Source: a bacterium UBP2_UBA5202 (GTDB lineage: Bacteria; Edwardsbacteria; AC1; EtOH8). From it: 64,000 nt of DNA. A program made the translations under genes and the position numbers. Positions 2,111 to 29,241 of the stretch are shown piece by piece; position 1 is the first letter of the stretch; each line of letters opens with the position of its first letter. The DNA is taken from NCBI GenBank assembly GCA_002412795.1, contig DHVS01000032.1:27577-91576 (forward strand). Reading direction: 5' to 3'. The notes below the pieces were generated by a model that saw only the letters and a list, made by a program, of their open reading frames with translations, ran no database searches and was not told the DNA's origin.

Positions 2111-2322
2111 TTATTGACGAAGATTGAAGTGCCGGGAATTTTTATTAGGAATCCCAGCCTGCGCTAAAGCTACGGCGGACAGGCATGAAACCAGGAAATA
2201 TATTATTTGACTTCCGGTTTTTCTTTTTAGAAGCAAACTATCTCGCCCCTGCCTGTCTCCTTCCCTGTTCCAATTTCCAATTTAACTATTTTCTATTTAT
2301 TAATTTATTTCCTATTTAATTA

Positions 2323-3516: not shown

Positions 3517-3552
3517 AAACTTCGTCCTTTTTGTTGCCGGGACCTAATAACG

Positions 3553-4260: not shown

Positions 4261-4283
4261 TTTCTTTTTCCTTTGTAACTGTT

Positions 4284-4468: not shown

Positions 4469-4574
4469 CTCAGTGCATGCTTTGTGGCTGAACGGTTACT
4501 TCCCTTTTTATTGATGGCCGGATACGATAACGATACAAAATCCGGGGCCAAAAGTCAAGGGGAATCATCTACTC

Positions 4575-5690
4575 TTACGCCAGCTCCACCGCCAGGCCGT
4601 CGGCCAGCAGCAGGCCCTGGGGCGTAAGGCGCAAATTTCTGCCGTCCCATTCCGCCCAGCCCCGCTCTTTCCAGCGGAGCCAGACCTGCGGCTTGTGCTC
4701 CAGGGGGGATCTCCCGAATCTGCGCTGATAACTTTTTATCTCAATCCCCGCGGCCATCCGCAAGCCCAGGAACAAAGCCTCGAACCTCTGCTGTTCCGGA
4801 GAAATGGTCTCCCGGAAACCGGCCGGGCTTTTGCCGTTGTTAATGGACCGGACATACCGTTCGCTATTCTTGACATTGCTCCATCTTTTGCCGCCCCGGT
4901 GCGAATGGGCCCCGGCCCCGAACCCCAGGTAATCGCCGGCCCGCCAGTAATTGATGTTGTGCCGGGAGCAATATCCTTTTCGGGCAAAGTTGGAGATCTC
5001 GTAGCGCTTAAGCCCGGCCCGGTCAAGCCTGTCGACGGCCTCCAGATACATGTCGGCTTCAAGCTCTTCGCCGCAGGGAATTATTCTGCCTTCTGCCTTC
5101 TGCCTTCTGAATTCGGTGTTCTCCTCGTAGGTCAGCGAATAAAGCGACAGGTGCCGGGGTTCAAGCGAAAGAGCCTTGGCCAGGTCATTTTTCCAGTCGC
5201 CCAACGACTGCCCCGGCAGGGCGTAGATCAGGTCCAGGCCGATGTTGGCAAAACCAGCTTTGGCCCCCAGCTCAAAGGCTTTGACGGCCTGCCGGGCGGT
5301 GTGAACCCGGCCTATCTGCTTCAACCGGTCGTCGTTGAAGGACTGCACCCCCAGGCTCAGCCGGTTGAAACCCATTTCCCGCAGGGCTTTCAGTTTTTCT
5401 AATGTCACAGTTCCGGGATTGGCCTCTATGGTCAGTTCGGCGTCAGACGGCCAGGGCCGGAGCTCGTTAAGAACCTTCCCGATCAAAGCGGCTGAAGCAA
5501 TGGTGGGGGTGCCACCGCCGAAATAGATCGTCTTTATGTCTTTGATTTCTGCCCTTCGGCCGGCGATCTCCCGGGCCAGGGCCCGAAAATAATTTTTAAG
5601 CCCGGCCGGCTGTCCCAGCGGCTGGGAATTGAACCCGCAGTAGTGACACTTGGCCAGACAGAAGGGAATATGGATGTAAACTGAGTTCAT
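4575..5690 (-). CDS. hemW: Radical SAM heme chaperone HemW / oxygen-independent coproporphyrinogen-III oxidase-like
   Basis: N-terminal HIPFCLAKCHYCGF (CxxxCxxC with the HemN/HemW signature), 371 aa. Confidence 0.85.
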   Translation of the reverse strand: MNSVYIHIPFCLAKCHYCGFNSQPLGQPAGLKNYFRALAREIAGRRAEIKDIKTIYFGGGTPTIASAALIGKVLNELRPWPSDAELTIEANPGTVTLEKLKALREMGFNRLSLGVQSFNDDRLKQIGRVHTARQAVKAFELGAKAGFANIGLDLIYALPGQSLGDWKNDLAKALSLEPRHLSLYSLTYEENTEFRRQKAEGRIIPCGEELEADMYLEAVDRLDRAGLKRYEISNFARKGYCSRHNINYWRAGDYLGFGAGAHSHRGGKRWSNVKNSERYVRSINNGKSPAGFRETISPEQQRFEALFLGLRMAAGIEIKSYQRRFGRSPLEHKPQVWLRWKERGWAEWDGRNLRLTPQGLLLADGLAVELA

Positions 5691-5840
5691 GGATTTGTTA
5701 TGATTTATGATTGCAGCGTCGCCAGCAGTACCTTATAACATTTTTCCCAAAAAGTCAAACAATTTCAGGGCCGTTAAAATATCTCCTGGCCTGGCTTGTA
5801 TCCCCTTGACTTTTTGCCTGAAATTTGACATCATTAAAAT

Positions 5841-13620: not shown

Positions 13621-14118
13621 TTATCGGTTGTTGCCCAAAAACAGGTAGGGCCGCCACCGCTGGTCCGGCAGCCCCAGATGATATTGGATGAAAGTGATAT
13701 AATGGGGATTTTTGGGTTTGCGCAACAGGTTCATTTTTATCCGGTTTAAGCTGAGATCTCCCTTTTTGTTGTTGCAGGCCACGCAGGCGCAGACCAGGTT
13801 CTCCCAGCTGTCCTCCCCGCCCTGGCTTTTGGGAATGACGTGATCGGCGGTCATGGCCCCCTGGGTGGTGCCGCAGTACTGGCAGGTCCGGTTGTCGCGC
13901 CGGACGATGTTCTGCTTGCTCAACCGGACGTTCTGGCGGGGCCGTTTGATGTAACAGTTGAGCCGGACCACGCTGGGCACAGTGAATTTCTGACGAAGGC
14001 TGCGCACCAAATGTTCGCTTTGTTCAACCACCTCGGCCTTCTGGCGGTAAAGCATCAGCAGGGCCCGGCGGGCATTGCAGACCGAGAGCGGTTCATAGTT
14101 CTGGTTAAGCACCAGCAC
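13621..14118 (-). CDS. HNH endonuclease family protein
   Basis: CQYCG..ADHVIPKSQGG..WENLV.ACVACNNKK HNH motif. Confidence 0.75.
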   Translation of the reverse strand: MLVLNQNYEPLSVCNARRALLMLYRQKAEVVEQSEHLVRSLRQKFTVPSVVRLNCYIKRPRQNVRLSKQNIVRRDNRTCQYCGTTQGAMTADHVIPKSQGGEDSWENLVCACVACNNKKGDLSLNRIKMNLLRKPKNPHYITFIQYHLGLPDQRWRPYLFLGNNR

Positions 14119-17027: not shown

Positions 17028-17084
17028 AAATTACGCATATTTTGTTTGACTTTGGCCCGATTTAGACTTATCATTAAATGTTGT

Positions 17085-17834
17085 ATGCTTAAAACAATCG
17101 CCGACTTACATACCCACACCGTTTTTTCCGACGGCCGGCTTTCGCCCCAAGAAGTTCTGCGGATCGCTGCGGACAAGGGGTACCGGGTGGGGCTGGCCGA
17201 CCACTGCGGCCCGGGAAATTTCCAGCTGGACAGCCGGGACCGGTTTGAAAAATATCTGTCAGCCATTCAGGACCTGCCAGTCTACCGAGCCGTGGAACTG
17301 GACCTGGGACGGGAGATTCCCATTTCACCGGAGGAGCTGAAACGCTGCCATTATCTGATCGGCGGGGTTCATTCAGTGGGAACGGCGGATTTCTTTGATC
17401 CCCGGATTACTGAGATCGATCTGCCCCTTCTGCTGGATGAGATGCTGGAAATAATCGGGCTCCAGTCCCAAAAATATTCTTTTGACATCCTGGCCCACCC
17501 CGGCCTGCTGCCCTGCAATTTCCGGGAGCAGAAAGACGCCATCACTGGCGGATGGCGGATGAAACTGGTGGAGCTGGCCCTGAAATGCAATTTGGCCATC
17601 GAACTCAGCTCCCGGTGGCTGGTCCCGGACCTGAAGCTGGCATCGATGGCCAAAGAGGCCGGATTGAAGTTTTCCCTGGGTTCGGACGGGCACGACGCCG
17701 ACAAAATGTGCCGGCTGGACTATTCGCTGGAGCTGGCCGGGAAACTGGAACTGGCCGACCGGGATCTGTTCTGGCCCTTGAACGGGGCTATTCCGTGGCA
17801 AACGAATCCTGGATCCGGTCATCCATCACCCTGA
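17085..17834 (+). CDS. PHP-domain metal-dependent phosphoesterase (start moved to MLKTIADLHTHT)
   Basis: DLHTHTVFSDG and ADHCGPG histidine clusters typical of the PHP family. Confidence 0.7.
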   Translation: MLKTIADLHTHTVFSDGRLSPQEVLRIAADKGYRVGLADHCGPGNFQLDSRDRFEKYLSAIQDLPVYRAVELDLGREIPISPEELKRCHYLIGGVHSVGTADFFDPRITEIDLPLLLDEMLEIIGLQSQKYSFDILAHPGLLPCNFREQKDAITGGWRMKLVELALKCNLAIELSSRWLVPDLKLASMAKEAGLKFSLGSDGHDADKMCRLDYSLELAGKLELADRDLFWPLNGAIPWQTNPGSGHPSP

Positions 17835-18246
17835 TCCTGGCCGAAAGGATCCGGGACATGGCCAGCATCATCTTGGCCGCTATCCTGGCCTCCTTGTCCA
17901 TCAGAAAGGCGATGTGCTTGCGGGTCAGAATATACAGCTCGGTGCTCTCCACCGCGTTGACATTGGCCGACCGGGGGGCCTTGTCCAGCAGGGACATTTC
18001 TCCGAAGAACTTTCCCGGACCCAGTTCGGCCAGCACCACGTCCCCCTGGTCGGTGGGCAGGCTGATCTGGACCTTGCCGCTCTTGATCAGGTACATGCTG
18101 TCGCCGGGTGCGTCCTTCTGGCAGATGATGGACCCGGGCATGAAATCCTCGGCCTCGGTGGAAAAAAGCTGGGTCAGGCGCATCATCTCGTCTTCGGCCA
18201 GTTCCTGGAACAGCAGGAAATCCCTGAGGTTGTTGATGGAGCTCAT
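17788..18246 (-). CDS. Standalone cyclic-nucleotide-binding (CNB) domain protein (start trimmed to MSSINN.., AGGAGG SD)
   Basis: GKFFGEMSLLDKAPRSANV phosphate-binding cassette; the track's longer start at 18396 would overlap the divergent gene by 80 nt and lacks an SD. Confidence 0.75.
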   Translation of the reverse strand: MSSINNLRDFLLFQELAEDEMMRLTQLFSTEAEDFMPGSIICQKDAPGDSMYLIKSGKVQISLPTDQGDVVLAELGPGKFFGEMSLLDKAPRSANVNAVESTELYILTRKHIAFLMDKEARIAAKMMLAMSRILSARIRVMDDRIQDSFATE

Positions 18247-18316
18247 TTCCCCTCCTGTTTGATGAAGTGATGGATTTTTAGGAACTTTACAATTTAAAAC
18301 CAAGGAGTCTGAAGGT

Positions 18317-18772
18317 ATGTCCCAGATCATCGAAGCCCTGACCAACAACCACCTTTTCTCCTCGCTGACCCCGGAGGAACTGGAGCGAATTGCCAAGCTG
18401 ATCTTTCTGCGCAGCTACCGCCAGGGCCGCACCCTGTTCTTTGAGGGCACTCCGGGCGAGGTGATGTATCTGATCCATTCCGGGCAGGTGGGCATTTACA
18501 AATCCGTTCCCGGAAAGGATGACCTTTTGCTGGCCACACTCAAACCCGGCAGTTTTTTTGGCGAGATGTCCCTGGTGGACGCCCAGCCCCGCTCGGCCAC
18601 CGCCCGGATAGCCGAGGATGCCGAACTGGTGGTGATCACCAAAAAGGTCTTTGACCAGATGCTGCTGACCGATCCCGGCATCACCTCCAAGTTGCTGGTG
18701 GCCCTGCTTAAAGTGGCTTTGGGGCGGCTGCGCTCCACCGACGAAAAATTCAAGAGCTTGAAGCCGGCCTAA
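18317..18772 (+). CDS. Standalone cyclic-nucleotide-binding (CNB) domain protein
   Basis: GSFFGEMSLVDAQPRSATARI phosphate-binding cassette; AAGGAG SD. Confidence 0.8.
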   Translation: MSQIIEALTNNHLFSSLTPEELERIAKLIFLRSYRQGRTLFFEGTPGEVMYLIHSGQVGIYKSVPGKDDLLLATLKPGSFFGEMSLVDAQPRSATARIAEDAELVVITKKVFDQMLLTDPGITSKLLVALLKVALGRLRSTDEKFKSLKPA

Positions 18773-18868
18773 CGGCCGGTTGACCACCCCGGACAATCAT
18801 AGCATATCAAAAGTCTCTCTCCCTGTCAAGCCGGTAAGGCGCATCTGAAAACATTTATTTTAAAGACC

Positions 18869-19204
18869 ATGAACAAGCAGCATAAAGACGCCGTTGTTAC
18901 GGAAACTCCAGACACCACCGGCGGGGCCGGATACCGTCATTACCTGGGGATGGTCAAGGTGCTGGAACGGTTGAAGAGGCAGAGCGACCTGGAATTCGGC
19001 CCCAGACTGATGAACAAGATCCTGGACGCCCGCCACGGCGGGCTGATCAGCGACGAGCAGGCGGTGGAGCTGACCGACCGGATCCATGCCTGGAGCCAGA
19101 AGCTGGAGGAACATTTCGTCAGCCAGGAATACCAGATGAAAAAACTGATGCTGGCCATAGAAATGGACGAGCGCCGCAGCGGAAAAAAACCATCCACCCT
19201 GTAA
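18869..19204 (+). CDS. Hypothetical small protein immediately upstream of the cyclase
   Basis: 111-aa ORF, 15 nt before the cyclase gene; no motif recognised. Confidence 0.35.
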   Translation: MNKQHKDAVVTETPDTTGGAGYRHYLGMVKVLERLKRQSDLEFGPRLMNKILDARHGGLISDEQAVELTDRIHAWSQKLEEHFVSQEYQMKKLMLAIEMDERRSGKKPSTL

Positions 19205-19218
19205 CCGGAGTTTGCCAA

Positions 19219-22200
19219 ATGGAACGAACCGAACTGGTCAGTAGAATACTGGAGAGGCTGGGTCAGATCACCCGCAAGGAACAGGCCGTCCCGGCGGATC
19301 AGCAGGAACAGACGGTGTTTGTGCGGCTGGACCAGGTGGAGAAGATCGTCAGTTCCATCGAACGTTACCTGCCCCGGCGGATAATTGACAAGATCCTGCT
19401 CAACCCCGAAGGAACCCAGGTGGAGGGCGAACGCCGCCCGGTGACAGTCTTGTTCGGGGATCTCTCCGGGTTTACCTCCATGTCCGAGACCATGGACCCG
19501 GAACAGGTGGTGGAGGTGGTCAACCAGTACTTCGATGCCATGGTGGAGATCGCCTCCCGCTACGGCGGGCATATAGACAAATTCATGGGCGACGCCTTGA
19601 TGGTGCTGTTCGGGGCGCCGGTGGTCCATGAGGACGACCCGTTGCGGGCCTGTCTGGCGGCCATCGAGATGCTGGAGGCCATGGACCGGTTCGCCGCCGA
19701 GCGCAAGATGGCGCTGGCCATGAGCATCGGCCTTAATTCCGGCGAAGTGGTGGCCCTGAACGTGGGATCCAGGGAAAGGATGGAATACACCGTGATCGGC
19801 GACGCCGTCAACCTGGCGGCCCGGCTGGAAAAGGTGGCCAACTCCCGGGAATGCGTGATCGGCGAGAATACCTATAAGAGGGTCAAGGGAAAGATCCGGC
19901 TGAAAAAACTGAAGCCGGTGATGGTCAAGGGAAAATCCAAGGCCCAGAATGTTTATTTGATCCTGGGACGGGTGGAAGCCGAGGAAAAGGCCGGAGCCCT
20001 TCGTTCCGGCTCCATCAAGATGGTGGGCCGCCAGGCCGAAATGAACGGGATCCGTCAGGCGGTTCAAAAAACCAAAGCCGGAGCCGGACAGATCGTAGCC
20101 ATCACCGGAGAACCGGGGCTTGGGAAATCCCGCCTGGCCAAGGAGCTGGAGCTTCTGGCCCGGGAGGATAACTTTAAATTCATCAAGGGCAAATGCTACT
20201 CCTACGCTTCTGGCGTCGCCTATCTGCCGTTCCTCCGCCAGTTGAATGTCTTGGCCGGTATCGCCGACTCTGATCCCGGTCCCAAGAAATCCGAAAAACT
20301 GCAGTCCTGCCTCCAAACATTAGACCTGCTGGAGTTCGAGCCTTATTTGGGCGCTTTGTTGGGGCTGAGCTATCCCGACATCGAAGCCCTGGACCCGGAA
20401 AAGCGCAAGAGAAAAACATTCGAGGCCTTCTCGCAGCTTTATTCCAAAACCTCAGCCAAACAGCCGCTGGTTTTGGCTTTTGAAGACCTGCATTGGGCGG
20501 ACACCATCACCCTGGAATTGCTGGAGCGCCTGGTGGAAGACCTGGAAAAGAAACCGGCGCTGGTCTGCTGCGATTACCGGCCGGAACTGGCCCTGCCTTT
20601 CATCGCCCGTTCCAACTGCACGAGCCTGGTGCTGAACAAACTGGACGTCCGGGAGACACTGCAGATGATCTCCGGACTGGCCCAGGTCCAGGACGTCAGC
20701 GAAGAGGTGCTTAAAAAGATAGAGGAACGGACCGAGGGCAATCCCCTGTTCATTGAGGAAACCATCCGCAACCTGCTCTCCCGCCGGCTGGTCAAACGGG
20801 ACGGCCCCAATCTGCAGGCCTCCAAGCGCTTTGAAAAAATATCCCTCCCCAACACGGTGGCCGCCATGGTGCTGGGCCGGATAGACAAGCTTTCCGAAGA
20901 GTTCCGCCGCACCCTGCAGTACGCCGCGGTGATCGGCAAGGAATTCGACAGCCGCCTGCTGGGAAAAATTTCGGGGCAGAACCCGGAACAGATCCAGCCC
21001 ATACTGGATAACCTGGAGCATTTTGAAGGGCTTTTGTATTCCAAACTGCTGGAGGGAAAACGGACCTACGAGTTCCACTCCACCACCACTCACGAGGCCG
21101 CCTACTCCACCCTGCTTAAGGGCCGGCGCAGGGAGCTGCACGGACAGGCCGCCCAGGCCTTGGAGCGGGAACACCAAAAGGATCTCTACTCCCACTACGA
21201 AGACCTGGCCCACCACTACTACCACAGCAAGGACAGCGACAAGGCGGTAAACTACCTGCACCGGGCCGGGGACAAGGCCCGGGGGCTTTATGCCAATCCC
21301 GAAGCGGTGGAGTTCTACCGCAAGGGGCTGGAGTTGGTCAAGCTGCTCAAGGAGAGCCGCCCCAACCTGCTGGAGACCGCCGAGTTGCTGGGGGCCCAGG
21401 GGGCCATTTTCCGGCTGACAGGCCAGCGGGACCAGGCCCTTAAGAACTTCCTCACCGCCGCCAAGATATCCCAGCGGGAGAAGGACGACAAGGCCGAAAG
21501 GAAATACCTGCTCTCGGCCGGAATAGTGTACGATATGCTGGGGCAGCCACAGAAGAGCCGGGATATCATCGACAACGTCCTGGACACGGCAGAGGGTTCG
21601 GGGGACCAGATCGCCCAGGCGGTAGCCCTGCACAACAAGGGCAATCTGTTGCTGCGCGGCGGAAACAACAATGAGGCGATAGACTCCTTTTCCAAAGCCC
21701 TCTCGATTTACCAGGCGCTGAAAAAGGAGCGGGAGATCGCCCAGATCCAGGGAAGCCTGGGAAAGGCCTTTGAACTGACCGGAGAGCTGCCCCGGGCGGT
21801 GGAGCATTACCGGAAGGCCATCGAAATTTCAACCTCCGTAAGATACACCGAAGGAATCGCTTTGCAGAACAACAACATCGGGAACCCCCTGCTGATGCTG
21901 GGCGAAGTCGAGGAGGCCGGCAAACACTTTGCCGCGGCGCTGGAAACCGCCAAAAAGATAGGCGACCGGAGAATAGAGTCCTTTGCCGGTTTCAACTTGG
22001 GAAACATTCAGTTTATGCTGGGCAGCTATACGGCGGCCTATGACCATTATGAGCGGGCGCTGCTGTCCGCCAAAGAGATCGGGGAGATAGCCCAGCAGAT
22101 GAACATCTCCTGCAATATCGGTTCGGTCTATCAGATCTGGGGTGACGCCCAGCCGGCAGTAGAACAGCACGCCGCGGCCCTCAAGATCTCACTGGTGATC

Positions 22201-23016
22201 AAGGACCGCAATACCGAGGCGGAGATCCGGAGGAACCTGGGCCTGGACCTGGCCCTGCATGGCAGATACCGGGAATCCCTGGAGGAGTTTGAAGGGGCGG
22301 CAGACTTGGCAGTTAAGATCGGTGACCCCCGGATGCAGGCCTATGTCAAGGCCAACCTGGGAGAACTTTTCCACCTGCTGGGCCGGCCGGAGCAGGCGGA
22401 GAGATCGATAACCGAAGCTCTGGAAGAAGCCCGCCAGGTCCGTGACCCCGAGGTCATCCTGGCCGCAGCCCGGGGTTTGGTGGAGTTCAAGCTGGCCACC
22501 GGAGATCTTCCCGGAGCCGAAGAGCATGTTAACCGCCTTTTGGGGCTGGCCGAAAAAACCCGGAACAAAAGGGAGACGGCTTACGGCCTGTTAAATTTAT
22601 CAGCCCTGATGATGAAGAAGGGCGAATCTGTAGAAATGACCCAGCCGCTTTCTGAATCCCTGGTCCTGGCCCAGGAACTTAAGGACAAATTTCTTTTGGG
22701 CCGGATTTACCTGCTGTTTGCCCAAAAGGCCTTACTTGCCAGCAATATCAGGGAAGCCGAAGACTATTTGAAGGATGCTTCGGAAATGGCCAAGAAAACG
22801 GAATCTCCTGAGCTTTCGTGGCAGACCGGTTATTATCTCAGCAAGTTATATGACCTGAAGGAAAATAGGGAACAAGCTGAAAAGGAGCTGGAAAACGCGC
22901 AGAATATAATCAAGCAAATGGAAAGCAGTTTGCCCCAGGTTGTTAGAGACGGCTTTATAGAAAAAACTTCCCGCAAGCTTGCGTTTACTAACGCGAGGGG
23001 CCAAGAACAACCATAA
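19219..23016 (+). CDS. Class III adenylate cyclase fused to STAND (AAA_16-type) NTPase and TPR repeat array
   Basis: Cyclase catalytic domain (FGDLSGFT, KFMGDALM, GDAVNLAARLE with Lys/Asp substrate residues indicating ATP); Walker A ITGEPGLGKSRLAKE; extensive C-terminal TPRs; 1265 aa. Confidence 0.8.
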   Translation: MERTELVSRILERLGQITRKEQAVPADQQEQTVFVRLDQVEKIVSSIERYLPRRIIDKILLNPEGTQVEGERRPVTVLFGDLSGFTSMSETMDPEQVVEVVNQYFDAMVEIASRYGGHIDKFMGDALMVLFGAPVVHEDDPLRACLAAIEMLEAMDRFAAERKMALAMSIGLNSGEVVALNVGSRERMEYTVIGDAVNLAARLEKVANSRECVIGENTYKRVKGKIRLKKLKPVMVKGKSKAQNVYLILGRVEAEEKAGALRSGSIKMVGRQAEMNGIRQAVQKTKAGAGQIVAITGEPGLGKSRLAKELELLAREDNFKFIKGKCYSYASGVAYLPFLRQLNVLAGIADSDPGPKKSEKLQSCLQTLDLLEFEPYLGALLGLSYPDIEALDPEKRKRKTFEAFSQLYSKTSAKQPLVLAFEDLHWADTITLELLERLVEDLEKKPALVCCDYRPELALPFIARSNCTSLVLNKLDVRETLQMISGLAQVQDVSEEVLKKIEERTEGNPLFIEETIRNLLSRRLVKRDGPNLQASKRFEKISLPNTVAAMVLGRIDKLSEEFRRTLQYAAVIGKEFDSRLLGKISGQNPEQIQPILDNLEHFEGLLYSKLLEGKRTYEFHSTTTHEAAYSTLLKGRRRELHGQAAQALEREHQKDLYSHYEDLAHHYYHSKDSDKAVNYLHRAGDKARGLYANPEAVEFYRKGLELVKLLKESRPNLLETAELLGAQGAIFRLTGQRDQALKNFLTAAKISQREKDDKAERKYLLSAGIVYDMLGQPQKSRDIIDNVLDTAEGSGDQIAQAVALHNKGNLLLRGGNNNEAIDSFSKALSIYQALKKEREIAQIQGSLGKAFELTGELPRAVEHYRKAIEISTSVRYTEGIALQNNNIGNPLLMLGEVEEAGKHFAAALETAKKIGDRRIESFAGFNLGNIQFMLGSYTAAYDHYERALLSAKEIGEIAQQMNISCNIGSVYQIWGDAQPAVEQHAAALKISLVIKDRNTEAEIRRNLGLDLALHGRYRESLEEFEGAADLAVKIGDPRMQAYVKANLGELFHLLGRPEQAERSITEALEEARQVRDPEVILAAARGLVEFKLATGDLPGAEEHVNRLLGLAEKTRNKRETAYGLLNLSALMMKKGESVEMTQPLSESLVLAQELKDKFLLGRIYLLFAQKALLASNIREAEDYLKDASEMAKKTESPELSWQTGYYLSKLYDLKENREQAEKELENAQNIIKQMESSLPQVVRDGFIEKTSRKLAFTNARGQEQP

Positions 23017-23148: not shown

Positions 23149-23180
23149 AAAAAGGGCGGCCATTTGGCCGCCCTTTTTAT
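23149..23180. terminator. Bidirectional rho-independent terminator between convergent cyclase and T9SS cargo genes
   Basis: AAAAAGGGCGGCC-ATTT-GGCCGCCCTTTTTAT. Confidence 0.8.
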
Positions 23181-23190: not shown

Positions 23191-26100
23191 TTATCTTAGC
23201 AGCACCATCCTTTGGGTAAGGCTGGTCCCTTCAAAATTCAGCTGGTAAAAATACACCCCGGCCGGCATCATCCTTCCCTGGCTGTCGTCGCCCTTCCAGG
23301 TCAGGCTGTAAGCTCCGCTTTGTTTTTGACCCTGGTCTAAAGTATTTACCCTCCGTCCGCAGATATCGTAGACATTTAGCGATACCGCTCCTGGTTTGTG
23401 CAGGGCATACTTGATTACAACCGCACCCGAGGAGGGGTTGGGATGACAGGGCATCAACTGCAGCTTATCGTAGACCAGACCTCCGCTTACCGCCATTACC
23501 GGGCCGTGCCAGGTCACCTGCCCGTTCAGGTCCTTGTCCCCCAGCCGGTAATAGTAAGTGGTGTTGGGCAATACCTCCGCATCGGTGTAGCTGTAGCTTC
23601 TGCCCACCGAGGATCCGCCCTCGGCCTCAATGGTTTTTATGTTTTGGAAATCTTCGGTGGGGCTGATTGAGCGCTCTATCAGCCATTGATAGTTGTCTTT
23701 CTCGCTGGCGGTTTGCCAGATCAATGTTATCCCCTCGTCCCCGCTCTGGCAGGCAAATTCAGAAAGTTCCACCGCCAAAGGCGTGGCCATAGCCCGGGGC
23801 GAAACCCCGGCAGCCAAGCTGTTGAATTGGTAGAAATAGGGATACTTGGCCACCGGGGCCTTGGAATCTTTGCCGATGTTGTTGGTGGTGGGGAAGGCGT
23901 TCCAGGAATGCTCGTTGGCCTCGTTGTTGCAGACCACCAGATATTTGAAGACATTGCCTACGGTATATTTCAAATAGGCGAACGGCACCTGGACCTCCAG
24001 GTAATTATATTTATTTATGCTGTCCAGCGACAAATAGCTGGTGTTGTATGAAGCTATGGAGTCCACCCAGGTCTTGCTGCCGGTGGATTTTTTCAGCACC
24101 GCGGTGGTTCCGTTCTCTATTATCAGGCAGAAATCCGGCCGGAAAGCGGGATCGAAACCGGAACAGGAATCCCCGGCATTATAGGTGCAGGTGGAATCGG
24201 CTCCGCCGGCCCGGGTGTCGAAATAAATGAACATGTCGCCGGCGGTTCGCCAATCGCAGCGGCTGTATCCCAGATAGAGATTGGATGCATCCCAAGTGGT
24301 GAACAGGGTGTCGCCGAGACGGATGCCTATCCTTTCGCTCTTGGTGAAATCGTTTACGCAGCCGTATGTGTAGCCCAGCCTGATCGTGTGGGGGGTGACC
24401 GTGTCGCCGGTGGCAATGATTCTCGGCTCGTTGCCCAAGGTACCCCATCTTACGGGTGAGCTCTCGTCGCCAGCTTTCAGGGCAAATATCAGGGTGTCGC
24501 CCGGAGCGAAGCCGAAGACATTTTTCTTTTCCCGGACATCCACGTTTGCCGGCACCCAAGCCTGATAATAGGTCATTCCGGTATCAATAAAATCTTCCTC
24601 GGAGCTCATCTTGCCCAAATCCGAGGCGGAGGCATTGTACTTGGTGTATTTTAACCAGTATTTACTGGCTTTTTCGGCCGCGTTGTCGTCGCTGACGGCA
24701 GTCCAGGAAAGCTCAACTGTGCCCTCGACGGTTCCGGTATAAACAGAATCCACCAGATCCACGATCGGCTCCGGCTCCACGTTAAAGCCCTGGTAGGCCA
24801 GGATCCGCCGGGTCAGCTCCGAGGCGGTGCTGGGAAATATGCCGTTTGTCAGTGAGCCGATGGAAAATGTCAGGTAGACGTTGTTGTGGACGGAAGCCTT
24901 GGTTCCCTTGTAATAGTCACCGTAGGAGGTGGCCCGGCCGTAGGTGATCTTGCCGGGGCCTTCGCTGGTCATGAGAAGGTTTGAGCCTGAAGCATACGGC
25001 TCTATGATGTCCACCGAATTGTCTGGCCCCTGTTGGAAAGGATAATCGAACATCATGCCATCGGTAAAGGTTCCGGCCAGGCCGTAGATCTTCTGGATGT
25101 TTCCGGTGGCGGCCGGGTTGCCGGGCCCGACATACTTGGAGCCGAACCTGGAGAACAGGGTGGTGGTGTTGTACATCTGCCCGAAGTCGTTGCCAGCCAT
25201 TATCAGGCACTTCAGGCTGTCGTCGGCGAAGGACACCAGGGAATCAAGCTGCTCCGGCTGGATGACTCCGGCTGTGCTGCCATCCTCGGCGTAACCCAGG
25301 TCCACCAGGCAGAGATCATAGGCTTCGCTGCTGTTAAGCTTGCCCTGCTTGCGCCAGGCGTATTCCAAAATGTCGGTGTTGGTGATCTGAACGAACTGCT
25401 GATTGGGGATGTTGCGTTCCTTGAAGGCCAGCACATAGGCCGAGTCCAGAGGGATATACAGGGATTCCGGCTCGGCGATGGGATCTTCGTTCCAGCCGGG
25501 GGTTGATGGATCATCGTAGCTCTTCTTGGGGTGGTACCAGATCTTCCGCCCCGATTCCTTGTCCTTGCTGATGTGGTAGTTTATGTCCACTTTCTTGAGG
25601 GTGTCCTGCTCCGCCTTGGCCGAATTGGTGAAATACTGGCCGAAGATGTCGCCCAGCCCGGTGGTGCGGCTGGAGTCCATCCAGGCAACCGAGAACCATT
25701 CCCCGAAGCGGCAGACCGCCGGGGCCCGCTGGCCGTTGGCCGGGTTTTGGTTGACCAGCTTGACCTTCTCCCACCTGGCGGCGTAGTCAAAATAGCGGGA
25801 CTTGATCTCATAACGATCCGAGCCCATCGAGTCAGCCCAGCTGACCCAGAAGGAGACATTGTCGGCATTCATAACGATGGAGGGTATCCGGCAGGCCACC
25901 GGATAGACCGGCAGGTTAACCTGAAAATTCTTGTCGATGGGCTTGGCATCCGGGTCAAAGCGTTGGGCATAAATATTACCCAGAACATTGCCGGTATAAT
26001 TTATCCAGGCGATGGTGAAAAAGCCGGTGTCATTGGCCGCGATGGCCGGGGTGAGGTGCGGCACTTCGACGTTCTCGCTGATCCGGGCTTCGTTGGTCAG

Positions 26101-26823
26101 GGGGCTGAGGTCGGCCTTGTAGTAGCGCAAGAAAATGCTGGGCCGGGATGGGCGGTGGTCCTGCCAGGTTATGGCGATGTACTTCTCGCTATAGCTTACC
26201 GCCGGCAGCACCTGATGGTACTTGTCGGGATCCTGGCTGATCTTGATATCGTCGCTGATCGGCTTGCAGTCGTAGTCGAACAGCCGGGCATAGATGTCCC
26301 AATCGCCGTCCCGTTCATCCTGCCAGACCACCACGAACCGCTGGTTAATGGGGTTGACCGCCACCTTGGGAAACTTGGCGTGCTTGGCTACTACCCGATT
26401 GATACGGAAATCCTCGGACAGCGGGAAACCGTCGGGCTTCATCTTGTGGCCGTAGATCTGCCAGAAGGGATCCTTGTAGATCGAGTCCTGCCACACCACA
26501 AAGACATAATCCCCCGACTTACCGGCCAAGTCAGGAGCCTTTTGGTCCCGGTTGTCCTGGGCCTTAGTGTTAACCAGAAAGGATGGCGTCAGCGGGGCGG
26601 GCTTGCGCTGCCACAGGCGGCCGTAGATGTTCCAGTTGCCGTCCCGGCGGTCGGCCCAGACGTAAGTGGAGTTGTAGTCCCGGTCCATCACCGCCGCCGG
26701 CGCCTCCTGGGCGGTCTCGCCGGCATCGTTGTCCCAAAGGAATATCTTGCAGGTGTCTTTGGCGGCCAGGGCCGCAGAGGACACGGCCATTACCGCGAAC
26801 AATAGACTTACTATTTTTTTCAC
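23191..26823 (-). CDS. Large secreted protein with repeated beta-propeller-like modules and C-terminal T9SS sorting domain
   Basis: Signal peptide MKKIVSLLFAVMAVSSAALA; repeated VVWQD..WDIY..F motif blocks; C-terminal ..LNVYDICGRRVNTL..GAYSLTWKGDD..GVYFYQL.. (Por/T9SS CTD pattern); 1210 aa. Confidence 0.7.
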   Translation of the reverse strand: MKKIVSLLFAVMAVSSAALAAKDTCKIFLWDNDAGETAQEAPAAVMDRDYNSTYVWADRRDGNWNIYGRLWQRKPAPLTPSFLVNTKAQDNRDQKAPDLAGKSGDYVFVVWQDSIYKDPFWQIYGHKMKPDGFPLSEDFRINRVVAKHAKFPKVAVNPINQRFVVVWQDERDGDWDIYARLFDYDCKPISDDIKISQDPDKYHQVLPAVSYSEKYIAITWQDHRPSRPSIFLRYYKADLSPLTNEARISENVEVPHLTPAIAANDTGFFTIAWINYTGNVLGNIYAQRFDPDAKPIDKNFQVNLPVYPVACRIPSIVMNADNVSFWVSWADSMGSDRYEIKSRYFDYAARWEKVKLVNQNPANGQRAPAVCRFGEWFSVAWMDSSRTTGLGDIFGQYFTNSAKAEQDTLKKVDINYHISKDKESGRKIWYHPKKSYDDPSTPGWNEDPIAEPESLYIPLDSAYVLAFKERNIPNQQFVQITNTDILEYAWRKQGKLNSSEAYDLCLVDLGYAEDGSTAGVIQPEQLDSLVSFADDSLKCLIMAGNDFGQMYNTTTLFSRFGSKYVGPGNPAATGNIQKIYGLAGTFTDGMMFDYPFQQGPDNSVDIIEPYASGSNLLMTSEGPGKITYGRATSYGDYYKGTKASVHNNVYLTFSIGSLTNGIFPSTASELTRRILAYQGFNVEPEPIVDLVDSVYTGTVEGTVELSWTAVSDDNAAEKASKYWLKYTKYNASASDLGKMSSEEDFIDTGMTYYQAWVPANVDVREKKNVFGFAPGDTLIFALKAGDESSPVRWGTLGNEPRIIATGDTVTPHTIRLGYTYGCVNDFTKSERIGIRLGDTLFTTWDASNLYLGYSRCDWRTAGDMFIYFDTRAGGADSTCTYNAGDSCSGFDPAFRPDFCLIIENGTTAVLKKSTGSKTWVDSIASYNTSYLSLDSINKYNYLEVQVPFAYLKYTVGNVFKYLVVCNNEANEHSWNAFPTTNNIGKDSKAPVAKYPYFYQFNSLAAGVSPRAMATPLAVELSEFACQSGDEGITLIWQTASEKDNYQWLIERSISPTEDFQNIKTIEAEGGSSVGRSYSYTDAEVLPNTTYYYRLGDKDLNGQVTWHGPVMAVSGGLVYDKLQLMPCHPNPSSGAVVIKYALHKPGAVSLNVYDICGRRVNTLDQGQKQSGAYSLTWKGDDSQGRMMPAGVYFYQLNFEGTSLTQRMVLLR

Positions 26824-27200
26824 TGGGTTTTTCTCCTTTTCCCTGGTGTTTTTTCCCGGATGGCAGCCAAAGCCATCGAGAGCAGTTTTATTCTTTTATC
26901 TTTGTCGTCCAAACACTGCTTTAGCAGTTTAAGTATATCTGATTTTTTTAAGTCGGAGGTGGGAAGGTACCAGTTCTCGCCTTTCTTTTTTATCTTCTGA
27001 AGTGTTTTGGCCTCTACGAATTGCTCCAAGCAGCAACTGATCTCGTCATGGCTTTTGCCCAACAACTTGGAAATGCTTTTGGGGGTTTCCTGGGCATTGG
27101 GCTGGCGGGCATAATGCAAAACAATGTCCAAAGCAGTGAAGCTGTGGATCGACCTTTGGATGAAATAGTCTAAGTCTTTATTTTCATTATCGCTATGCAT
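26820..27200 (-). CDS. Small protein, possible winged-helix DNA-binding regulator, co-transcribed with the T9SS cargo gene
   Basis: 126 aa; helix-turn-helix-like TALDIVLHYARQP..ETPKSISKLLGKSHDEISCCLEQFVEAK..KKGENWY; 4-nt overlap with downstream gene; lower GC than neighbours. Confidence 0.4.
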   Translation of the reverse strand: MHSDNENKDLDYFIQRSIHSFTALDIVLHYARQPNAQETPKSISKLLGKSHDEISCCLEQFVEAKTLQKIKKKGENWYLPTSDLKKSDILKLLKQCLDDKDKRIKLLSMALAAIREKTPGKRRKTQ

Positions 27201-27395
27201 AGTTATCTCTTATTGAGAACAATATAATGCAAAAACTATGCCAACTAGTTTATCAATTTATATTACCATGCAACAACTGGACTTATGTTACTTATTGATT
27301 TTATGCTTTTGGTTGAATTGTTGTATTTATATATAACGTCAATAAAAAAATGTACTGTCTACCTTTGGTTACATTTGCACAATTTATTTTAATAA

Positions 27396-27412
27396 TGCAT
27401 TTTTTGTGCCTT
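27396..27412 (-). promoter_or_regulatory. Candidate sigma54 (-24/-12) promoter reading toward the wHTH and T9SS cargo operon
   Basis: Minus strand reads AGGCAC-AAAAA-ATGCA with GG-N10-GC spacing, matching TGGCAC-N5-TTGCW; about 185 nt upstream of the ATG at 27200. Confidence 0.35.
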
Positions 27413-27547
27413 TTATTAATTTTGTTTATATATTTTCTATCTATCTTATTATCAACAATTTAGCCCCCTGCTCGTTATTACCAAACAACATATTGAGGTG
27501 TAATATTTACACTCCTGTTTCATCAATGCCATATCTTTCAAATAGTT

Positions 27548-27578
27548 ATAATAAGATGTAAATTTTACATCTTATTAT
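27548..27578. promoter_or_regulatory. 31-bp perfect palindrome (ATAATAAGATGTAAA-T-TTTACATCTTATTAT); candidate enhancer (UAS) for the adjacent sigma54 activator
   Basis: Direct read; arms of 15 bp identical on reverse complement; centre about 150 bp upstream of the candidate -24 element. Confidence 0.45.
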
Positions 27579-27592
27579 GGTTTCTTGCACGT

Positions 27593-27625
27593 AAAAAGGC
27601 CTTAACACAAGCTAAGGCCTTTTTG
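27593..27625. terminator. Rho-independent terminator after the sigma54 activator gene
   Basis: AAAAAGGCCTTA-ACACAAGC-TAAGGCCTTTTTG. Confidence 0.75.
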
Positions 27626-27663
27626 TAAATAGCTTTGTGAGTAATCATTGAATCTTAGTTGAC

Positions 27664-29241
27664 TTATTCTCTGTTGCGGGGCCGGATGATGTTCAGCTCC
27701 TTTAATAGCCGGGAAAGATAGGATGGCTGAATGTCCAAAACCTTGGCAGTTTTTCTTTGATTCCAGTTGTTCGCCTCCAGCGCTTTTATCATATATTCCC
27801 GCTTGAACACATCCTGGGCGCCGTCCCAGGTCATGGTGGGCGGTATGCCATCCCTGGTGGAAGTATCGTCAATCAGCCGGGGCAGGTTCTGCAGGGTTAT
27901 GGTCTGGCCGGAGCTGAGCACCACCGCCCTCTCCACCGCATTCTGCAGCTCCCGGATGTTTCCCGGCCAGGAATAGTTCTGCATGGCCTGGGCGGCCTCC
28001 TCGGTAAATTCCCTCACCTGCTTTTTGGTCTCCCGGCCGAATTGTTCCAGAAAATGCCGGGCCAAAACCGGGATGTCCTCCGCCCTTTGGCGCAGCGGCG
28101 GCAGGAATATTTGAAAAACATTCAGCCGGTAATAAAGATCCTCCCGGAATAATCCGGATTTCACCAGTTGCAGCAGGTCCTTGTTGGTGGCGGCGATGAT
28201 CCTGACATCCACTTTTATCGTCTCGCTGCTGCCCAGCCGCTCAAATTCCCTCTCCTGCAAAACCCTCAGGATCTTGGCCTGAATGGCCTGGGGCAGGTCC
28301 CCTACTTCGTCCAGGAAGATGGTGCCTCCGGCCGCCATCTCAAACCGTCCCTTGCGCCGGCTGCCGGCCCCGGTAAAGGCGCCCTTCTCGTGTCCGAACA
28401 GCTCGGATTCCAGCAGTTCCACCGGGATGGCGGCGCTGTTGACGGCCACAAAGGCCTTTTCGGCCCGGGGGCTTTGGTAATGAATGAACCGTGCCAGCAG
28501 TTCCTTGCCGGTCCCGTTCTCCCCCTGCAGCAGCACCGTGGTGTTCCCGGAGGCCACCTTGCGGGCCAGGCCCAGCACCTCTTCCACCGCCTGGCTCTTG
28601 CCGGTGATGGTGTAGCGGCTGGCCAGCTCGTCACGCAGCTGGACGTTCTCGTCCTTCAAGCGGCTGTATTTGTCGGCGTTCTCCAGCACCTGGGCCGCCA
28701 GATCGGCGAATTTCAAAAGCAGTTCCTGGTCCTGCTGGTCGAACCGCTGGCCGTCCTTTTTGTTCAGCACCTCTATCACGCCGATGGTCTGGCCCCTTGA
28801 AAGCAGCGGCACGCAGAGCAGGGACTTGGTGATAAACTTGGTCTTTTCATCTATTCCCTTGTACCAGCGCTCGTCCTGCTCGGCCTGGTTCACGATCTGG
28901 GGCTTTTGCTCCCGGGCCACCCACCCGGCTATCCCCTGGCCCATGGGGATGGAAAGTTTTTTCAGCTCCTCCGAGACCTCCCCGGTGGCATGGGCAAAAT
29001 GCAGGTTCTGGGTGGCCTGGTCCAGCAATAATAGAGAACTGGCCTCGGCCACGGTCAGCGTTTTGGCCGACTCAATGATGATGTCCAGCAGCTGGCTTTG
29101 ATCCAGGGTGGAAGAAAGCGATTTGCTGAAGGAAAGAAGAAATTCCAGTTCCTGGCGGGATTTCTGGTCGCTCATATGGTTTATATATCCTTTTTGTAAT
29201 ATTTCTTGTTCAATGATAGCAGTGAAATATATGTTTGTCAA
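27664..29241 (-). CDS. Sigma54-dependent transcriptional activator (bEBP) with N-terminal GAF sensor and C-terminal Fis-type HTH
   Basis: AAA+ sigma54-interaction domain (Walker A GENGTGKE, GAFTGA motif, Walker B DEV..); HTH (QRKTAKVLDIQPSYLSRLLKEL). Confidence 0.85.
   Translation of the reverse strand: MTNIYFTAIIEQEILQKGYINHMSDQKSRQELEFLLSFSKSLSSTLDQSQLLDIIIESAKTLTVAEASSLLLLDQATQNLHFAHATGEVSEELKKLSIPMGQGIAGWVAREQKPQIVNQAEQDERWYKGIDEKTKFITKSLLCVPLLSRGQTIGVIEVLNKKDGQRFDQQDQELLLKFADLAAQVLENADKYSRLKDENVQLRDELASRYTITGKSQAVEEVLGLARKVASGNTTVLLQGENGTGKELLARFIHYQSPRAEKAFVAVNSAAIPVELLESELFGHEKGAFTGAGSRRKGRFEMAAGGTIFLDEVGDLPQAIQAKILRVLQEREFERLGSSETIKVDVRIIAATNKDLLQLVKSGLFREDLYYRLNVFQIFLPPLRQRAEDIPVLARHFLEQFGRETKKQVREFTEEAAQAMQNYSWPGNIRELQNAVERAVVLSSGQTITLQNLPRLIDDTSTRDGIPPTMTWDGAQDVFKREYMIKALEANNWNQRKTAKVLDIQPSYLSRLLKELNIIRPRNRE

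Follow-up and report, generated by a model that had tools for sequence, protein, structure and literature searches.

A sensor-type class III cyclase kept beside two cNMP-binding proteins without a DNA-binding domain: a probable cAMP signalling unit of TA06/Edwardsbacteria

In this study, we examined a bacterial cyclase and the two cyclic-nucleotide-binding (CNB) proteins encoded in its vicinity, which carry no output domain. The locus lies in a 64-kb window, the whole stretch of Edwardsbacteria DNA that was analysed, in which the original prediction had placed a self-contained cAMP signalling island, with two divergent standalone CNB genes next to a 1265-aa cyclase-STAND-TPR fusion. ORF calls and Pfam matches confirm the two CNB genes and the fusion as claimed. 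Judged from sequence comparison, our findings support, with a rough probability of 0.6, a model where TA06/Edwardsbacteria carry at this locus a cAMP signalling unit that is chromosomal and passed on vertically, CNB1 and CNB2 reading the signal of the cyclase. The unit is nonetheless larger than anticipated and cannot be called self-contained, since two further conserved genes, PHP and ORF111, are part of the block. The first gene is PHP (17085..17834, plus strand, 249 aa; Pfam PHP, E 5e-6), followed by CNB1 (17788..18246, minus strand, 152 aa; Pfam cNMP_binding, E 1e-22) and CNB2 (18317..18772, plus strand, 151 aa; Pfam cNMP_binding, E 6e-24), with 70 bp separating both start codons (18247..18316). 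The cyclase gene (19219-23016, plus strand; Guanylate_cyc, AAA_16, and TPR in Pfam) does not adjoin the CNB genes, as ORF111, coding for a conserved, lineage-specific helical protein of 111 aa (18869..19204, plus strand), sits between CNB2 and the cyclase. Nor is the word island supported: the GC content of the locus (0.56-0.585) is that of the rest of the window, the block is flanked by the housekeeping genes LpxK and NadA, and its inheritance is, from sequence, vertical and chromosomal.

The catalytic domain of the cyclase (residues 73-248; 19435..19962, plus strand; Pfam Guanylate_cyc, E 3e-29) follows an N-terminal helical segment (residues 1-72; 19219..19434, plus strand). The metal-binding Asp pair, on which the original prediction hung, is present on alignment with CyaB and Cya2: D81 (FGDLSGFT) and D125 (FMGDA) show no variation among 17 homologues, and neither do Lys121 of IDKFMGD and the transition-state pair Asn198 and Arg202 (N-x3-R). 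The remaining substrate position, Thr191, seven residues before Asn198, is Thr in 15 of the 17, Ser in one, and Ile in another; overall, the six catalytic residues and the Walker A and B motifs are kept in these homologues at identities down to 33%. The substrate positions follow the rule set by D1018, N1025, and R1029 in AC2 numbering. Thr in place of the Asp of classes IIIa and IIIc is a marker of sAC-like class IIIb (PMC3383692). The best prediction is thus a class IIIb, ATP-type cyclase with a purine (ATP) substrate. Cyclic AMP had been deduced from the Lys and an Asp in GDAVN; Lys121 and the ATP prediction stand, but D195 as specificity residue does not, this role falling to Thr191. An invariant YLPxRxxxKI motif (columns Y50, L51, P52, R54, K58, I59, and P63) precedes the catalytic domain, and from residue 41 onward the segment can be aligned with the linker in 6fht, a phytochrome-cyclase fusion. 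Among solved structures, the closest relatives are Cya2 (2w01), the engineered fusion 6fht, and Pseudomonas aeruginosa CyaB (3r5g), the best-scoring being the cyanobacterial Cya2 cyclase domain 2w01 with its engineered adenylate-cyclase fusion 6fht; we take 2w01 to be a guanylyl cyclase, whereas the search lists it as adenylate cyclase. Class IIIb cyclases (CyaB 3r5g, sAC-like) share with the present protein the full residue set and the preceding conserved helical element, yet they carry an N-terminal sensor (MASE, GAF, PAS, or phytochrome); here, the conserved pre-catalytic helix has only ~45 residues ahead of it, and the regulator, a STAND NTPase and TPR array, is C-terminal.

This C-terminal portion starts with an AAA_16 STAND-type NTPase core (residues 268-448; 20020..20562, plus strand; Pfam E 3e-25), in which Walker A (GEPGLGKS, K303) and Walker B (LAFEDLHWAD, E422 and D423) are invariant among homologues, and ends in a TPR array (21316..23016, plus strand; Pfam TPR_12, TPR_1, and TPR_MalT types) with TPR_12 and TPR_MalT matches spanning residues ~700-1250. 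Walker motifs, TPR arm, and N-terminal effector domain, the core features of a STAND NTPase, are all recognizable in the sequence. A sequence search of the PDB found no solved relative of the NTPase portion and, for the repeats, TPR proteins only. The array, presumably a sensor or scaffold, is the most divergent portion of the protein: among lineage members identity is 80-97% in the catalytic domain versus 34-71% in the TPR array (53-84% for the whole cyclase). The cyclase-NTPase-repeat architecture recurs in more than 4,400 proteins of the database. Among described proteins, the mycobacterial mclx group (Rv0386, Rv1358, and Rv2488c) joins a cyclase homology domain to an AAA/NB-ARC domain and a LuxR HTH (PMC4452763). 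These proteins, like those of TIGR03903, resemble ours in having a class III cyclase N-terminal to an AAA_16/NB-ARC-type NTPase and helical repeats, but the C-terminal LuxR HTH of mclx is absent from the present cyclase. Furthermore, the substrate residues of Rv0386 are unusual, whereas here they are the canonical K/T. The NCBIfam model TIGR03903 (TOMM system kinase/cyclase fusion protein) aligns over cyclase residues 20-845 (E 3e-95); membership was rejected, as the score of 320 bits falls far below the cut-off (705) and the match begins at profile position 231, the kinase part being absent.

The succession of N-terminal effector, STAND core, and C-terminal repeats also recalls Avs, and the PADLOC models PycC and PycTIR match the cyclase and CNB domains, so that an anti-phage role could be envisaged, with an Avs-like STAND sensor and cyclase effector signalling to CNB receptors in a Pycsar-like fashion. 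We consider this highly improbable. The PADLOC matches are generic (PycC E 1.5e-28, Pfam Guanylate_cyc E 3.4e-29), those to PycTIR covering the CNB part of the models only, and no Avs model matched in PADLOC; antiviral STAND proteins were also set aside on the grounds that different genomes keep both the locus and its neighbours, rather than showing a sporadic or mobile distribution. Pycsar loci do similarly place a class III-type cyclase gene beside genes for CNB-domain proteins; however, their CNB is joined to an effector of TIR or transmembrane type, whereas CNB1 and CNB2 are single-domain proteins devoid of TIR, TM, or other killing domain, and their cyclase is pyrimidine-specific, whereas Lys121 and Thr191 predict a purine here. 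The present cyclase is, in addition, STAND-fused, single-copy, and vertically inherited at a fixed chromosomal position among housekeeping genes; the GC content is normal for the window, and the distribution across genomes largely follows the species tree.

How, then, are the two receptors built? In Pfam, cNMP_binding is the sole match of both proteins and HTH_Crp_2 is absent. CNB2 is a paralogue of CNB1 (34% identity) and likewise consists of a CNB domain and C-helix only. The alignment of CNB1 spans residues 8-142 of a 228-aa CRP, that of CNB2 residues 8-144 of a CRP; identity of the pair to environmental CRP regulators is 30-43%. CNB1 orthologues form 19 clusters of 152-157 aa, after which the next-best homologues are full CRP/FNR regulators of 220-237 aa, and CNB2 orthologues measure 150-158 aa. 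The AF2 model of CNB1 (pLDDT 89) ends in a 32-residue helix and finds its best fold matches in Mtb CRP, GlxR, and TtCAP; with the CRP family (Mtb CRP 3d0s, GlxR 4byy, Thermus thermophilus CAP 4ev0, and Sinorhizobium meliloti Clr 7pza) it gives TM scores of 0.78-0.85, which cover the whole query, matching in CNB fold, phosphate-binding cassette, and long C-helix. The CRP family carries HTH_Crp_2, whereas its absence is conserved in CNB1 and CNB2. Based on sequence and model, both are CRP/FNR-family sensors that end just after the dimerization helix, without a DNA-binding domain. The receptor-only nature originally proposed, with neither effector nor DNA-binding domain, is therefore upheld by the lone cNMP_binding match and by lengths conserved across 19 clusters, and without HTH_Crp_2 the proteins cannot alone act as CRP-type transcription factors. 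That they are frameshifted CRP fragments was rejected: the length of 152 aa is conserved, the 3' end of CNB1 shares 47 bp with the convergent PHP gene and leaves no space for further coding sequence, and ORF111 does not encode an HTH. Mfla_1926 (PDB 3gyd, TM 0.86) is similarly a lone CNB domain, flanked by helices and lacking an output domain; yet 3gyd is a structural-genomics entry with no function in its PDB description, whereas CNB1 and CNB2 are a conserved paralogous pair in a cyclase operon.

The binding loops read FFGEMSLLDKAPRSAN in CNB1 and FFGEMSLVDAQPRSAT in CNB2, and the G-E...R-S-A pocket is invariant in 38 sequences. RSAN in CNB1 versus RSAT/S in CNB2 is a paralogue-specific difference, conserved across both orthologue sets. 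The difference first pointed out is thus real, but the hint at distinct nucleotide preference that was read from it does not hold: the discriminating position directly after the Arg is Ser in both proteins, RSAN occurs in ordinary CRP regulators, and RSAT is found in cGMP-binding PfPKG sites. From pocket sequence, cAMP and cGMP are not separable. The long C-helix and the N-terminal helices are conserved as strongly as the pocket, which would be unexpected for a pure ligand sink. This counts against a buffer or sponge, an alternative already named in the original prediction, in which CNB-only proteins bind cAMP and set its free level or kinetics with no downstream partner. The missing output domain agrees with such a role, two paralogues whose conserved pockets differ slightly could offer two affinities, and a feedback damper would be well served if CNB1 and the cyclase operon are transcribed reciprocally, as predicted below; on balance, we find it improbable. 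Truncation exactly after the dimerization helix, and nearest non-orthologous homologues that are full CRP regulators, would also be expected of "micro-CRPs" that titrate or redirect, through C-helix heterodimers and in a cAMP-dependent manner, either full CRP/FNR proteins or the 1072-aa protein with two CNB domains that adjoins the block at five loci (L007, L012, L090, L091, and L093). Conversely, the 64-kb window contains neither a full-length CRP gene nor any further CNB gene, and the identity of only 30-43% to CRP regulators leaves the interface fit uncertain; this explanation is possible, though unlikely.

The 24 homologues of ORF111 are 67-100% identical, residues 22-105 forming a core of high conservation, and copies 45-56% identical occupy the same position in relatives; only 11 representatives occur among 1.8 billion proteins. 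Pfam, NCBIfam, and PADLOC gave no match, and a structure search with its AF2 model (three helices, pLDDT 76) found no specific fold match. ORF111 stops 14 bp short of the cyclase start, a spacing that measures 1-39 bp in most relatives and 69 bp at the partial locus L013, so that translation of ORF111 and the cyclase is probably coupled. The PHP protein is a predicted PHP-family metal-dependent phosphoesterase with an HxH motif (DLHTHT), its NCBIfam matches all falling under their cut-offs. One PHP diesterase has weak cAMP activity (PMC5460133); by this precedent and its adjacency, the protein would be a candidate cAMP-removing phosphodiesterase, the weakest step of our model.

Regarding expression, the CNB genes had been described as transcribed divergently from their shared 70-bp region. 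The length is exact, but a transcription start there is not apparent: the gap is taken up by the ribosome-binding sites of both genes (GGAGG in each case), and no sigma70-like site, even at 9/12, lies within 200 bp of it; in nine relatives the gap measures 32-52 bp. Two sigma70-like sites occur elsewhere. One lies 5' of PHP (17046..17074, plus strand, TTGACT-17-TATCAT in the window scan), with an equivalent, TTGAC[AT]-17/18-TAnnAT, in all eight relatives having upstream sequence (8/8). The other lies 3' of CNB2 (18801..18829, minus strand, TTGACA-17-TGaTATGCT, a 10/12 match with the TG of an extended -10) and points through CNB2, in antisense, to CNB1; TTGACA does not vary in 10/10 loci, where the spacing is 17, or 18 in a single case, with a variable spacer sequence. 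In the window-wide scan, strong TTGACA-type sites are located just upstream of genes, so the promoter model suits this organism. No minus-strand terminator-like site was found between the 18801..18829 site and CNB1, nor any plus-strand promoter-like site separating CNB2 from ORF111-cyclase, although promoters of other sigma types might still serve CNB2 or ORF111-cyclase. We thus predict from these motifs overlapping antisense transcription, with one transcript running from the PHP promoter through PHP, CNB1 (antisense), CNB2, ORF111, and the cyclase, and a minus-strand transcript beginning beyond CNB2 and encoding CNB1. Downstream of the cyclase, a hairpin (23149..23178; AAAAAGGGCGGCCA-TT-TGGCCGCCCTTTTT) with a perfect 14-bp stem and an A-run and T-run on its sides looks like a bidirectional terminator, separating it from a T9SS-cargo gene (23191..26823, minus strand; a secreted 1210-aa protein ending in a T9SS sorting domain, with Por_Secre_tail/FlgD_ig in Pfam and NCBIfam). 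For the convergent promoters, a comparison is offered by the Listeria excludons (PMC3377988), where the mRNA of one gene similarly starts beyond its divergent neighbour and is antisense to all of it; here, on the other hand, the arrangement is predicted from conserved promoter-like motifs alone.

Does the block persist as a unit? PHP-CNB1-CNB2-ORF111-cyclase is syntenic in ~12 Edwardsbacteria/TA06 genomes (loci L007-L013, L016, L024, L090, L091, and L093), with upstream flanks that vary between LpxK, the 1072-aa CNB protein, and others. The synteny foreseen for the triad is therefore borne out within this lineage but not in WOR-3/Stahlbacteria, where CNB genes are absent beside the cyclase orthologues. 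The cyclase gene itself is single-copy and in TA06/Edwardsbacteria, WOR-3, and Stahlbacteria stands each time at the same position by the T9SS gene, the only neighbour kept beyond the lineage: 12 of the 13 WOR-3/Stahlbacteria loci having downstream sequence retain this convergent partner (~30% identity). The T9SS-cargo operon would have stood beside the cyclase since before the TA06/WOR-3 split. In Edwardsbacteria MAG059, PHP-CNB1-CNB2 and the cyclase are on different contigs, and thus their adjacency is not obligatory; ORF111 was found at neither MAG059 locus. Synteny inside one lineage could partly be due to shared descent rather than function. Such losses would fit a coincidental neighbourhood, in which adjacency reflects shared ancestry and the CNB proteins answer another ligand or cyclase; CRP/FNR-family domains are indeed able to bind other ligands. 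Several observations nevertheless make this quite improbable: the block is kept despite differing upstream flanks, the residues binding the cNMP phosphate are invariant, no plus-strand promoter-like site parts CNB2 from ORF111-cyclase, and in remote lineages a cyclase of the same architecture has independently been paired with CRP. In the latter (L027 and L043-L045), the cyclase-STAND-TPR gene is followed by an overlapping gene for a CNB and HTH_Crp_2 regulator; this translational coupling of a full CRP to the same cyclase type renders a cyclase-receptor relation plausible.

Overall, in the signalling unit that we favour, ligand binding by the TPR arm and ATP binding by the NTPase would lead to oligomerization, as in other STAND proteins, which would pair two cyclase domains into a two-subunit active site and yield cAMP. 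CNB1 and CNB2 would read this cAMP and, having no output domain, must work via protein contacts, possibly as homo- or heterodimers; their candidate partners are ORF111, the cyclase, and any full-length CRP-type proteins encoded outside this locus. Alternatively, they may buffer free cAMP. The PHP phosphoesterase is the candidate remover of the signal. PHP, CNB2, ORF111, and the cyclase would share one long plus-strand transcript, and the head-on transcripts may let CNB1 expression and cyclase-operon expression interfere mutually. Pushed further, the block could act as an inbuilt toggle for a cAMP signal gated by STAND, its receptors on overlapping head-on transcripts, CNB1 expressed from the promoter beyond CNB2, and CNB2, ORF111, and cyclase from that of PHP; this we offer as a speculative and doubtful extension. 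If true, making one receptor would suppress the other receptor and the cyclase, the receptors would work purely by contacting other proteins (ORF111, the cyclase, or CNB proteins of larger size), and the output might affect the sigma54/GAF-controlled T9SS-cargo operon. Our findings thus illustrate an unusual layout of familiar cAMP signalling rather than a new kind of system, the unusual part being a sensor-type cyclase kept beside two predicted cAMP-receptor proteins that lack the DNA-binding half.

We read this locus as encoding a housekeeping-type cAMP signalling unit, with a probability of roughly 0.6. ORF listing and a Pfam domain search bore out the three proteins of the original prediction: CNB1 (152 aa; 17788-18246, minus strand) and CNB2 (151 aa; 18317-18772, plus strand), whose start codons lie exactly 70 bp apart, and a 1265-aa cyclase (19219-23016, plus strand) joining a Guanylate_cyc domain (residues 73-248), a STAND-type AAA_16 domain (268-448) and a TPR array with TPR_MalT-type matches. 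A 202-aa TTG-extended ORF was rejected as CNB1, the ATG at 18246 being used by public gene calls and all orthologues. The cyclase shares the locus with the CNB genes as proposed, but is not their direct neighbour: a gene for a 111-aa protein, ORF111 (18869-19204, plus strand), overlooked in the first reading, lies in between and is called in all public copies of the contig, which occurs in ENA, JGI and Logan assemblies. Homologues carry the names candidate division TA06 or Candidatus Edwardsbacteria. Since the GC content of the region (0.56-0.585) is in line with that of the window and the flanking genes are LpxK and NadA, it is not aptly called an island. Among these housekeeping genes (PBP4-type peptidase S13, NadA, LpxK), all contig copies also carry a gene for a 165-aa HNH endonuclease-domain protein (13621-14118, minus strand). 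Stretches of low GC (0.44-0.48, vs about 0.56-0.60 elsewhere in the window) occur at 46001-50000, 60001-62000 and 26001-28000.

CNB1 and CNB2 are CRP-family sensors minus the DNA-binding domain, and the short form is the conserved product. Both match cNMP_binding strongly and keep the phosphate-binding cassette, in which G, F-G-E, S, D and R-S-A are invariant among 38 sequences. The loss of the DNA-binding domain follows from database clusters, alignment end points and fold matches. The CNB1 search gave 19 clusters of CNB-only proteins of 152-157 aa (58-100% identity), all from the Edwardsbacteria/TA06 lineage; the next matches are only 30-43% identical, each a 220-237-aa CRP/FNR regulator with HTH_Crp_2. 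In BLASTP against one such regulator, residues 7-146 of CNB1 and 8-148 of CNB2 align to residues 8-144, through the C-helix, and stop there. AF2 models CNB1 (pLDDT 89) as a CNB beta-roll that leads into a 32-residue helix. Its best PDB matches are Mtb CRP, GlxR, Thermus thermophilus CAP and Clr, with TM of 0.78-0.85 across the entire query but just about 0.55-0.6 of the targets; a further match is 3gyd, a stand-alone CNB protein. The possibility that these are CRP fragments whose HTH sits in a missed frame fails: the 3' end of CNB1 overlaps by 47 bp the convergent gene for a PHP-family phosphoesterase (17085-17834, plus strand), the lengths of both proteins are conserved, and the ORF following CNB2, ORF111, is not an HTH. 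RSAN in CNB1 and RSA[TS] in CNB2 consistently separate the two orthologue sets. The difference had been taken as a hint of distinct nucleotide preference; it is uninformative on the ligand, because RSAN also occurs in ordinary CRP regulators, RSAT in cGMP-binding PfPKG sites, and the residue directly after the Arg is Ser in both proteins. That the pair act as dominant-negative partners of full CRP or CNB proteins is possible but unlikely, and we consider it improbable that they are a pure cAMP buffer. A literature search on stand-alone bacterial CNB proteins returned nothing relevant, and we know of no function assigned to single-domain CNB proteins.

The closest solved relatives of the cyclase domain are cyanobacterial Cya2 (2w01; engineered fusion 6fht) and Pseudomonas aeruginosa CyaB (3r5g). 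In an alignment of 17 homologues, with identity down to 33%, the metal-binding Asp pair (D81 and D125), the substrate residue K121 and the transition-state residues N198 and R202 are all invariant, as are the Walker A (GxPGxGK[ST], K303) and Walker B (hhhhEDxxW, E422/D423) motifs. The Asp of GDAVN (D195), originally named as the second specificity residue, falls in the wrong column; by mammalian AC2 (D1018/N1025/R1029), we take the specificity position to lie seven residues before the Asn, at Thr191 here (15 of the 17 homologues have T, one has S and one I). That the enzyme uses ATP nevertheless remains the prediction, on better grounds, namely Lys121 and Thr191, which by residue identity are a class IIIb (sAC-like) signature. 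A published proposal is that the class IIIb Thr predicts regulation by bicarbonate (PMC3383692). A conserved YLPxRxxxKI helix N-terminal to the cyclase domain corresponds in the alignment to the 6fht signalling linker. Within the lineage, identity drops along the protein, from 80-97% in the cyclase domain to 59-90% in the STAND part and 34-71% in the TPR array. The architecture itself is common: one search gave more than 4,400 proteins at E <= 1e-20, and 'class 3 adenylate cyclase/predicted ATPase' is a frequent annotation among them. The NCBIfam TOMM kinase/cyclase model aligns to residues 20-845, but with a score far below its cut-off, and it has a kinase part that this cyclase lacks. The best-known relatives of the type are the mycobacterial CHD-AAA/NB-ARC-LuxR proteins (PMC4452763). 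A search for a solved relative of the STAND part gave TPR matches only, and a literature search for studies of NTPase/TPR control of the cyclase in such cyclase-STAND-TPR proteins found none; we know of no established mechanism for such control.

Conservation of gene order was followed in 80 loci fetched from species-representative genomes, whose ORFs were called and clustered. The order PHP (plus strand), CNB1 (minus), CNB2, ORF111 and cyclase (plus), then a convergent gene for a T9SS-sorted cargo protein (23191-26823, minus strand), recurs in L007-L013, L016 and L024, from Edwardsbacteria/TA06 genomes with cyclases 55-77% identical, and in L090, L091 and L093, on contigs located by protein look-ups. 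Upstream of PHP the genes vary: LpxK in the window, a 1072-aa two-CNB protein in five relatives, and other genes elsewhere. This 1072-aa protein (L090 632-3850; L091 672-3890; L007 and L012 about 1700-4920; the end of L093) is encoded immediately before PHP, in the same orientation, and apart from two cNMP_binding domains at its C-terminus it has no Pfam match; LpxK occupies its place in the 64-kb window, which holds no third CNB gene. The triad is thus syntenic in the Edwardsbacteria/TA06 loci, as anticipated, but not universally: in one Edwardsbacteria genome, MAG059, the cyclase and T9SS gene lie on one contig (L041) and PHP-CNB1-CNB2 on another (L092), with ORF111 found at neither, and no CNB, PHP or ORF111 gene lies near the WOR-3/Stahlbacteria orthologues (cyclase 32-34% identical). 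At L041 a secreted, T9SS-related Reg_prop/PorZ-N-like beta-propeller gene (5309-6871) lies upstream of the cyclase. In a further cyclase clade at about 28% identity (L028-L031, L038, L050-L055; WOR-3 and TA06 32_111), the next gene is always co-directional and encodes a protein of about 850 aa that no Pfam family matches; beyond this gene, two minus-strand genes are conserved in the loci with downstream sequence (L029, L038, L050-L055). In L027 and L043-L045 a CRP regulator (CNB and HTH_Crp_2) directly follows the cyclase, the genes overlapping. The cyclase-CNB association is therefore real but confined to one lineage, and the pairing of a cyclase with a full CRP is an independent parallel to it. 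A role in anti-phage defence, highly improbable in our estimate, is rejected, since PADLOC gave generic PycC and PycTIR-CNB domain matches only and no Avs match, no killing domain is attached to the CNB proteins, a purine substrate is predicted from the cyclase residues, and the locus is fixed and vertically inherited.

ORF111 is a real, lineage-specific helical protein. It has 24 close homologues (67-100% identity), almost invariant over residues 22-105 and variable at the N-terminus, and relatives further removed have copies 45-56% identical in the same place; an exhaustive profile search found only 11 matches among 1.8 billion representatives. The weakest matches examined, P0151 (E 7e-8) and P0153 (E 2.5e-5), lie in unrelated contexts with no cyclase or CNB genes, and are probably coiled-coil noise rather than distant relatives. 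From its stop to the cyclase start there are 14 bp in the window, 1-39 bp in most relatives and 69 bp in the partial locus L013; ORF111 is probably co-translated with the cyclase and probably binds it.

The original prediction had CNB1 and CNB2 transcribed divergently from a shared 70-bp region. The layout argues otherwise: the gap, only 32-52 bp in relatives, is filled by two ribosome-binding sites, and in 10 loci no sigma70-like site was found within 200 bp of it even at 9/12 matches. A positionally conserved promoter-like motif (TTGAC[AT]-17/18-TAnnAT; window 17046-17074) lies just upstream of PHP, and a minus-strand one (TTGACA-17-TAT[GCT]CT with a TG extension; window 18829-18801) between CNB2 and ORF111, the latter with invariant hexamers and spacing and a variable spacer in 10/10 loci. 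No plus-strand site before ORF111 was found even at 8/12 in 8/10 loci, nor any terminator-like hairpin interrupting either path; a perfect bidirectional one stands 3' of the cyclase (23149-23178). Strong TTGACA-type sites just upstream of genes across the window indicate that the promoter model suits the organism. A search of the intergenic regions for known RNA elements (Rfam) gave nothing credible, with one snoRNA match at E 0.18. A perfect 12/12 sigma70 consensus (TTGACA-17-TATAAT) occurs at 43244-43272 (minus strand), where the ORF at 42068-43297 begins. The simplest reading of these motifs would be two overlapping transcripts, one on the plus strand carrying PHP, antisense-CNB1, CNB2, ORF111 and the cyclase, the other on the minus strand, starting about 20 nt beyond the CNB2 stop, running antisense through CNB2 and encoding CNB1; such a layout would predict reciprocal expression. 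It resembles an excludon (PMC3377988), here predicted from promoter-like motifs alone. The layout is not reproduced in MAG059, whose block and cyclase are unlinked. A merely coincidental adjacency of CNB and cyclase genes is improbable, as the block is kept while its flanks change, no internal promoter was found, and cyclase and CRP genes have paired independently.

No neighbour of the cyclase is conserved more deeply than the T9SS-cargo gene. The convergent pair of cyclase and T9SS-sorted protein (about 1100-1200 aa) spans Edwardsbacteria/TA06 to WOR-3 and Stahlbacteria, where the T9SS protein is about 30% identical and the cyclase 32-34%; there the T9SS-tail partner is kept in 12 of the 13 loci with downstream sequence, while upstream genes vary. 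Loci listed with it are L015, L017-L023, L026, L035, L039 and L046, besides the window. The N-terminal ~1100 aa of the cargo protein have no Pfam match and contain repeated W-x-D...DIY-type motifs. The two genes are not co-transcribed. A near-consensus sigma54 promoter, TGGCATAGTTTTTGCA (27228-27243, minus strand), the only 1-mismatch match in the window, lies 28 nt upstream of ORF126 (26820-27200, minus strand), which shares 4 bp with the start of the T9SS-cargo gene; just upstream is a gene for a GAF, Sigma54_activat and HTH_8 activator (27664-29175, minus strand). Equivalent matches occupy the same place in L007, L012, L090 and L091, and WOR-3 locus L017 has one upstream of its T9SS gene. 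The GC dip at 26-28 kb is this AT-rich promoter region. No sigma54 promoter was found for the CNB or cyclase genes.

As a housekeeping-type cAMP unit, the locus would most likely work as follows. Ligand on the TPR arm and ATP on the STAND core would drive oligomerisation and so assemble cyclase dimers, with ORF111 as a putative cyclase partner; the cAMP would be sensed by CNB1 and CNB2, the HTH-less CRP paralogues, acting through protein contact or buffering. PHP might, speculatively, remove the signal; weak activity on cAMP/cGMP is described for one PHP diesterase (PMC5460133).

All component families are already known, and the system is a conventional one, in which a class III cyclase makes cAMP and CRP-like domains read it. 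The new features are the conserved association of a STAND-type cyclase with two output-less CRP paralogues, the coupled helical protein ORF111, specific to the lineage, the predicted nested antisense promoter layout, and the deep linkage of the cyclase to the T9SS-cargo gene. As a compact, conserved test case, the locus unites a sensor cyclase with a small coupled partner and two receptors that have no output domain; relatives with a full CRP and relatives without CNB genes provide natural comparison states. If the predicted overlapping transcription is true, it would be a clear non-model instance of antisense control inside a second-messenger operon.
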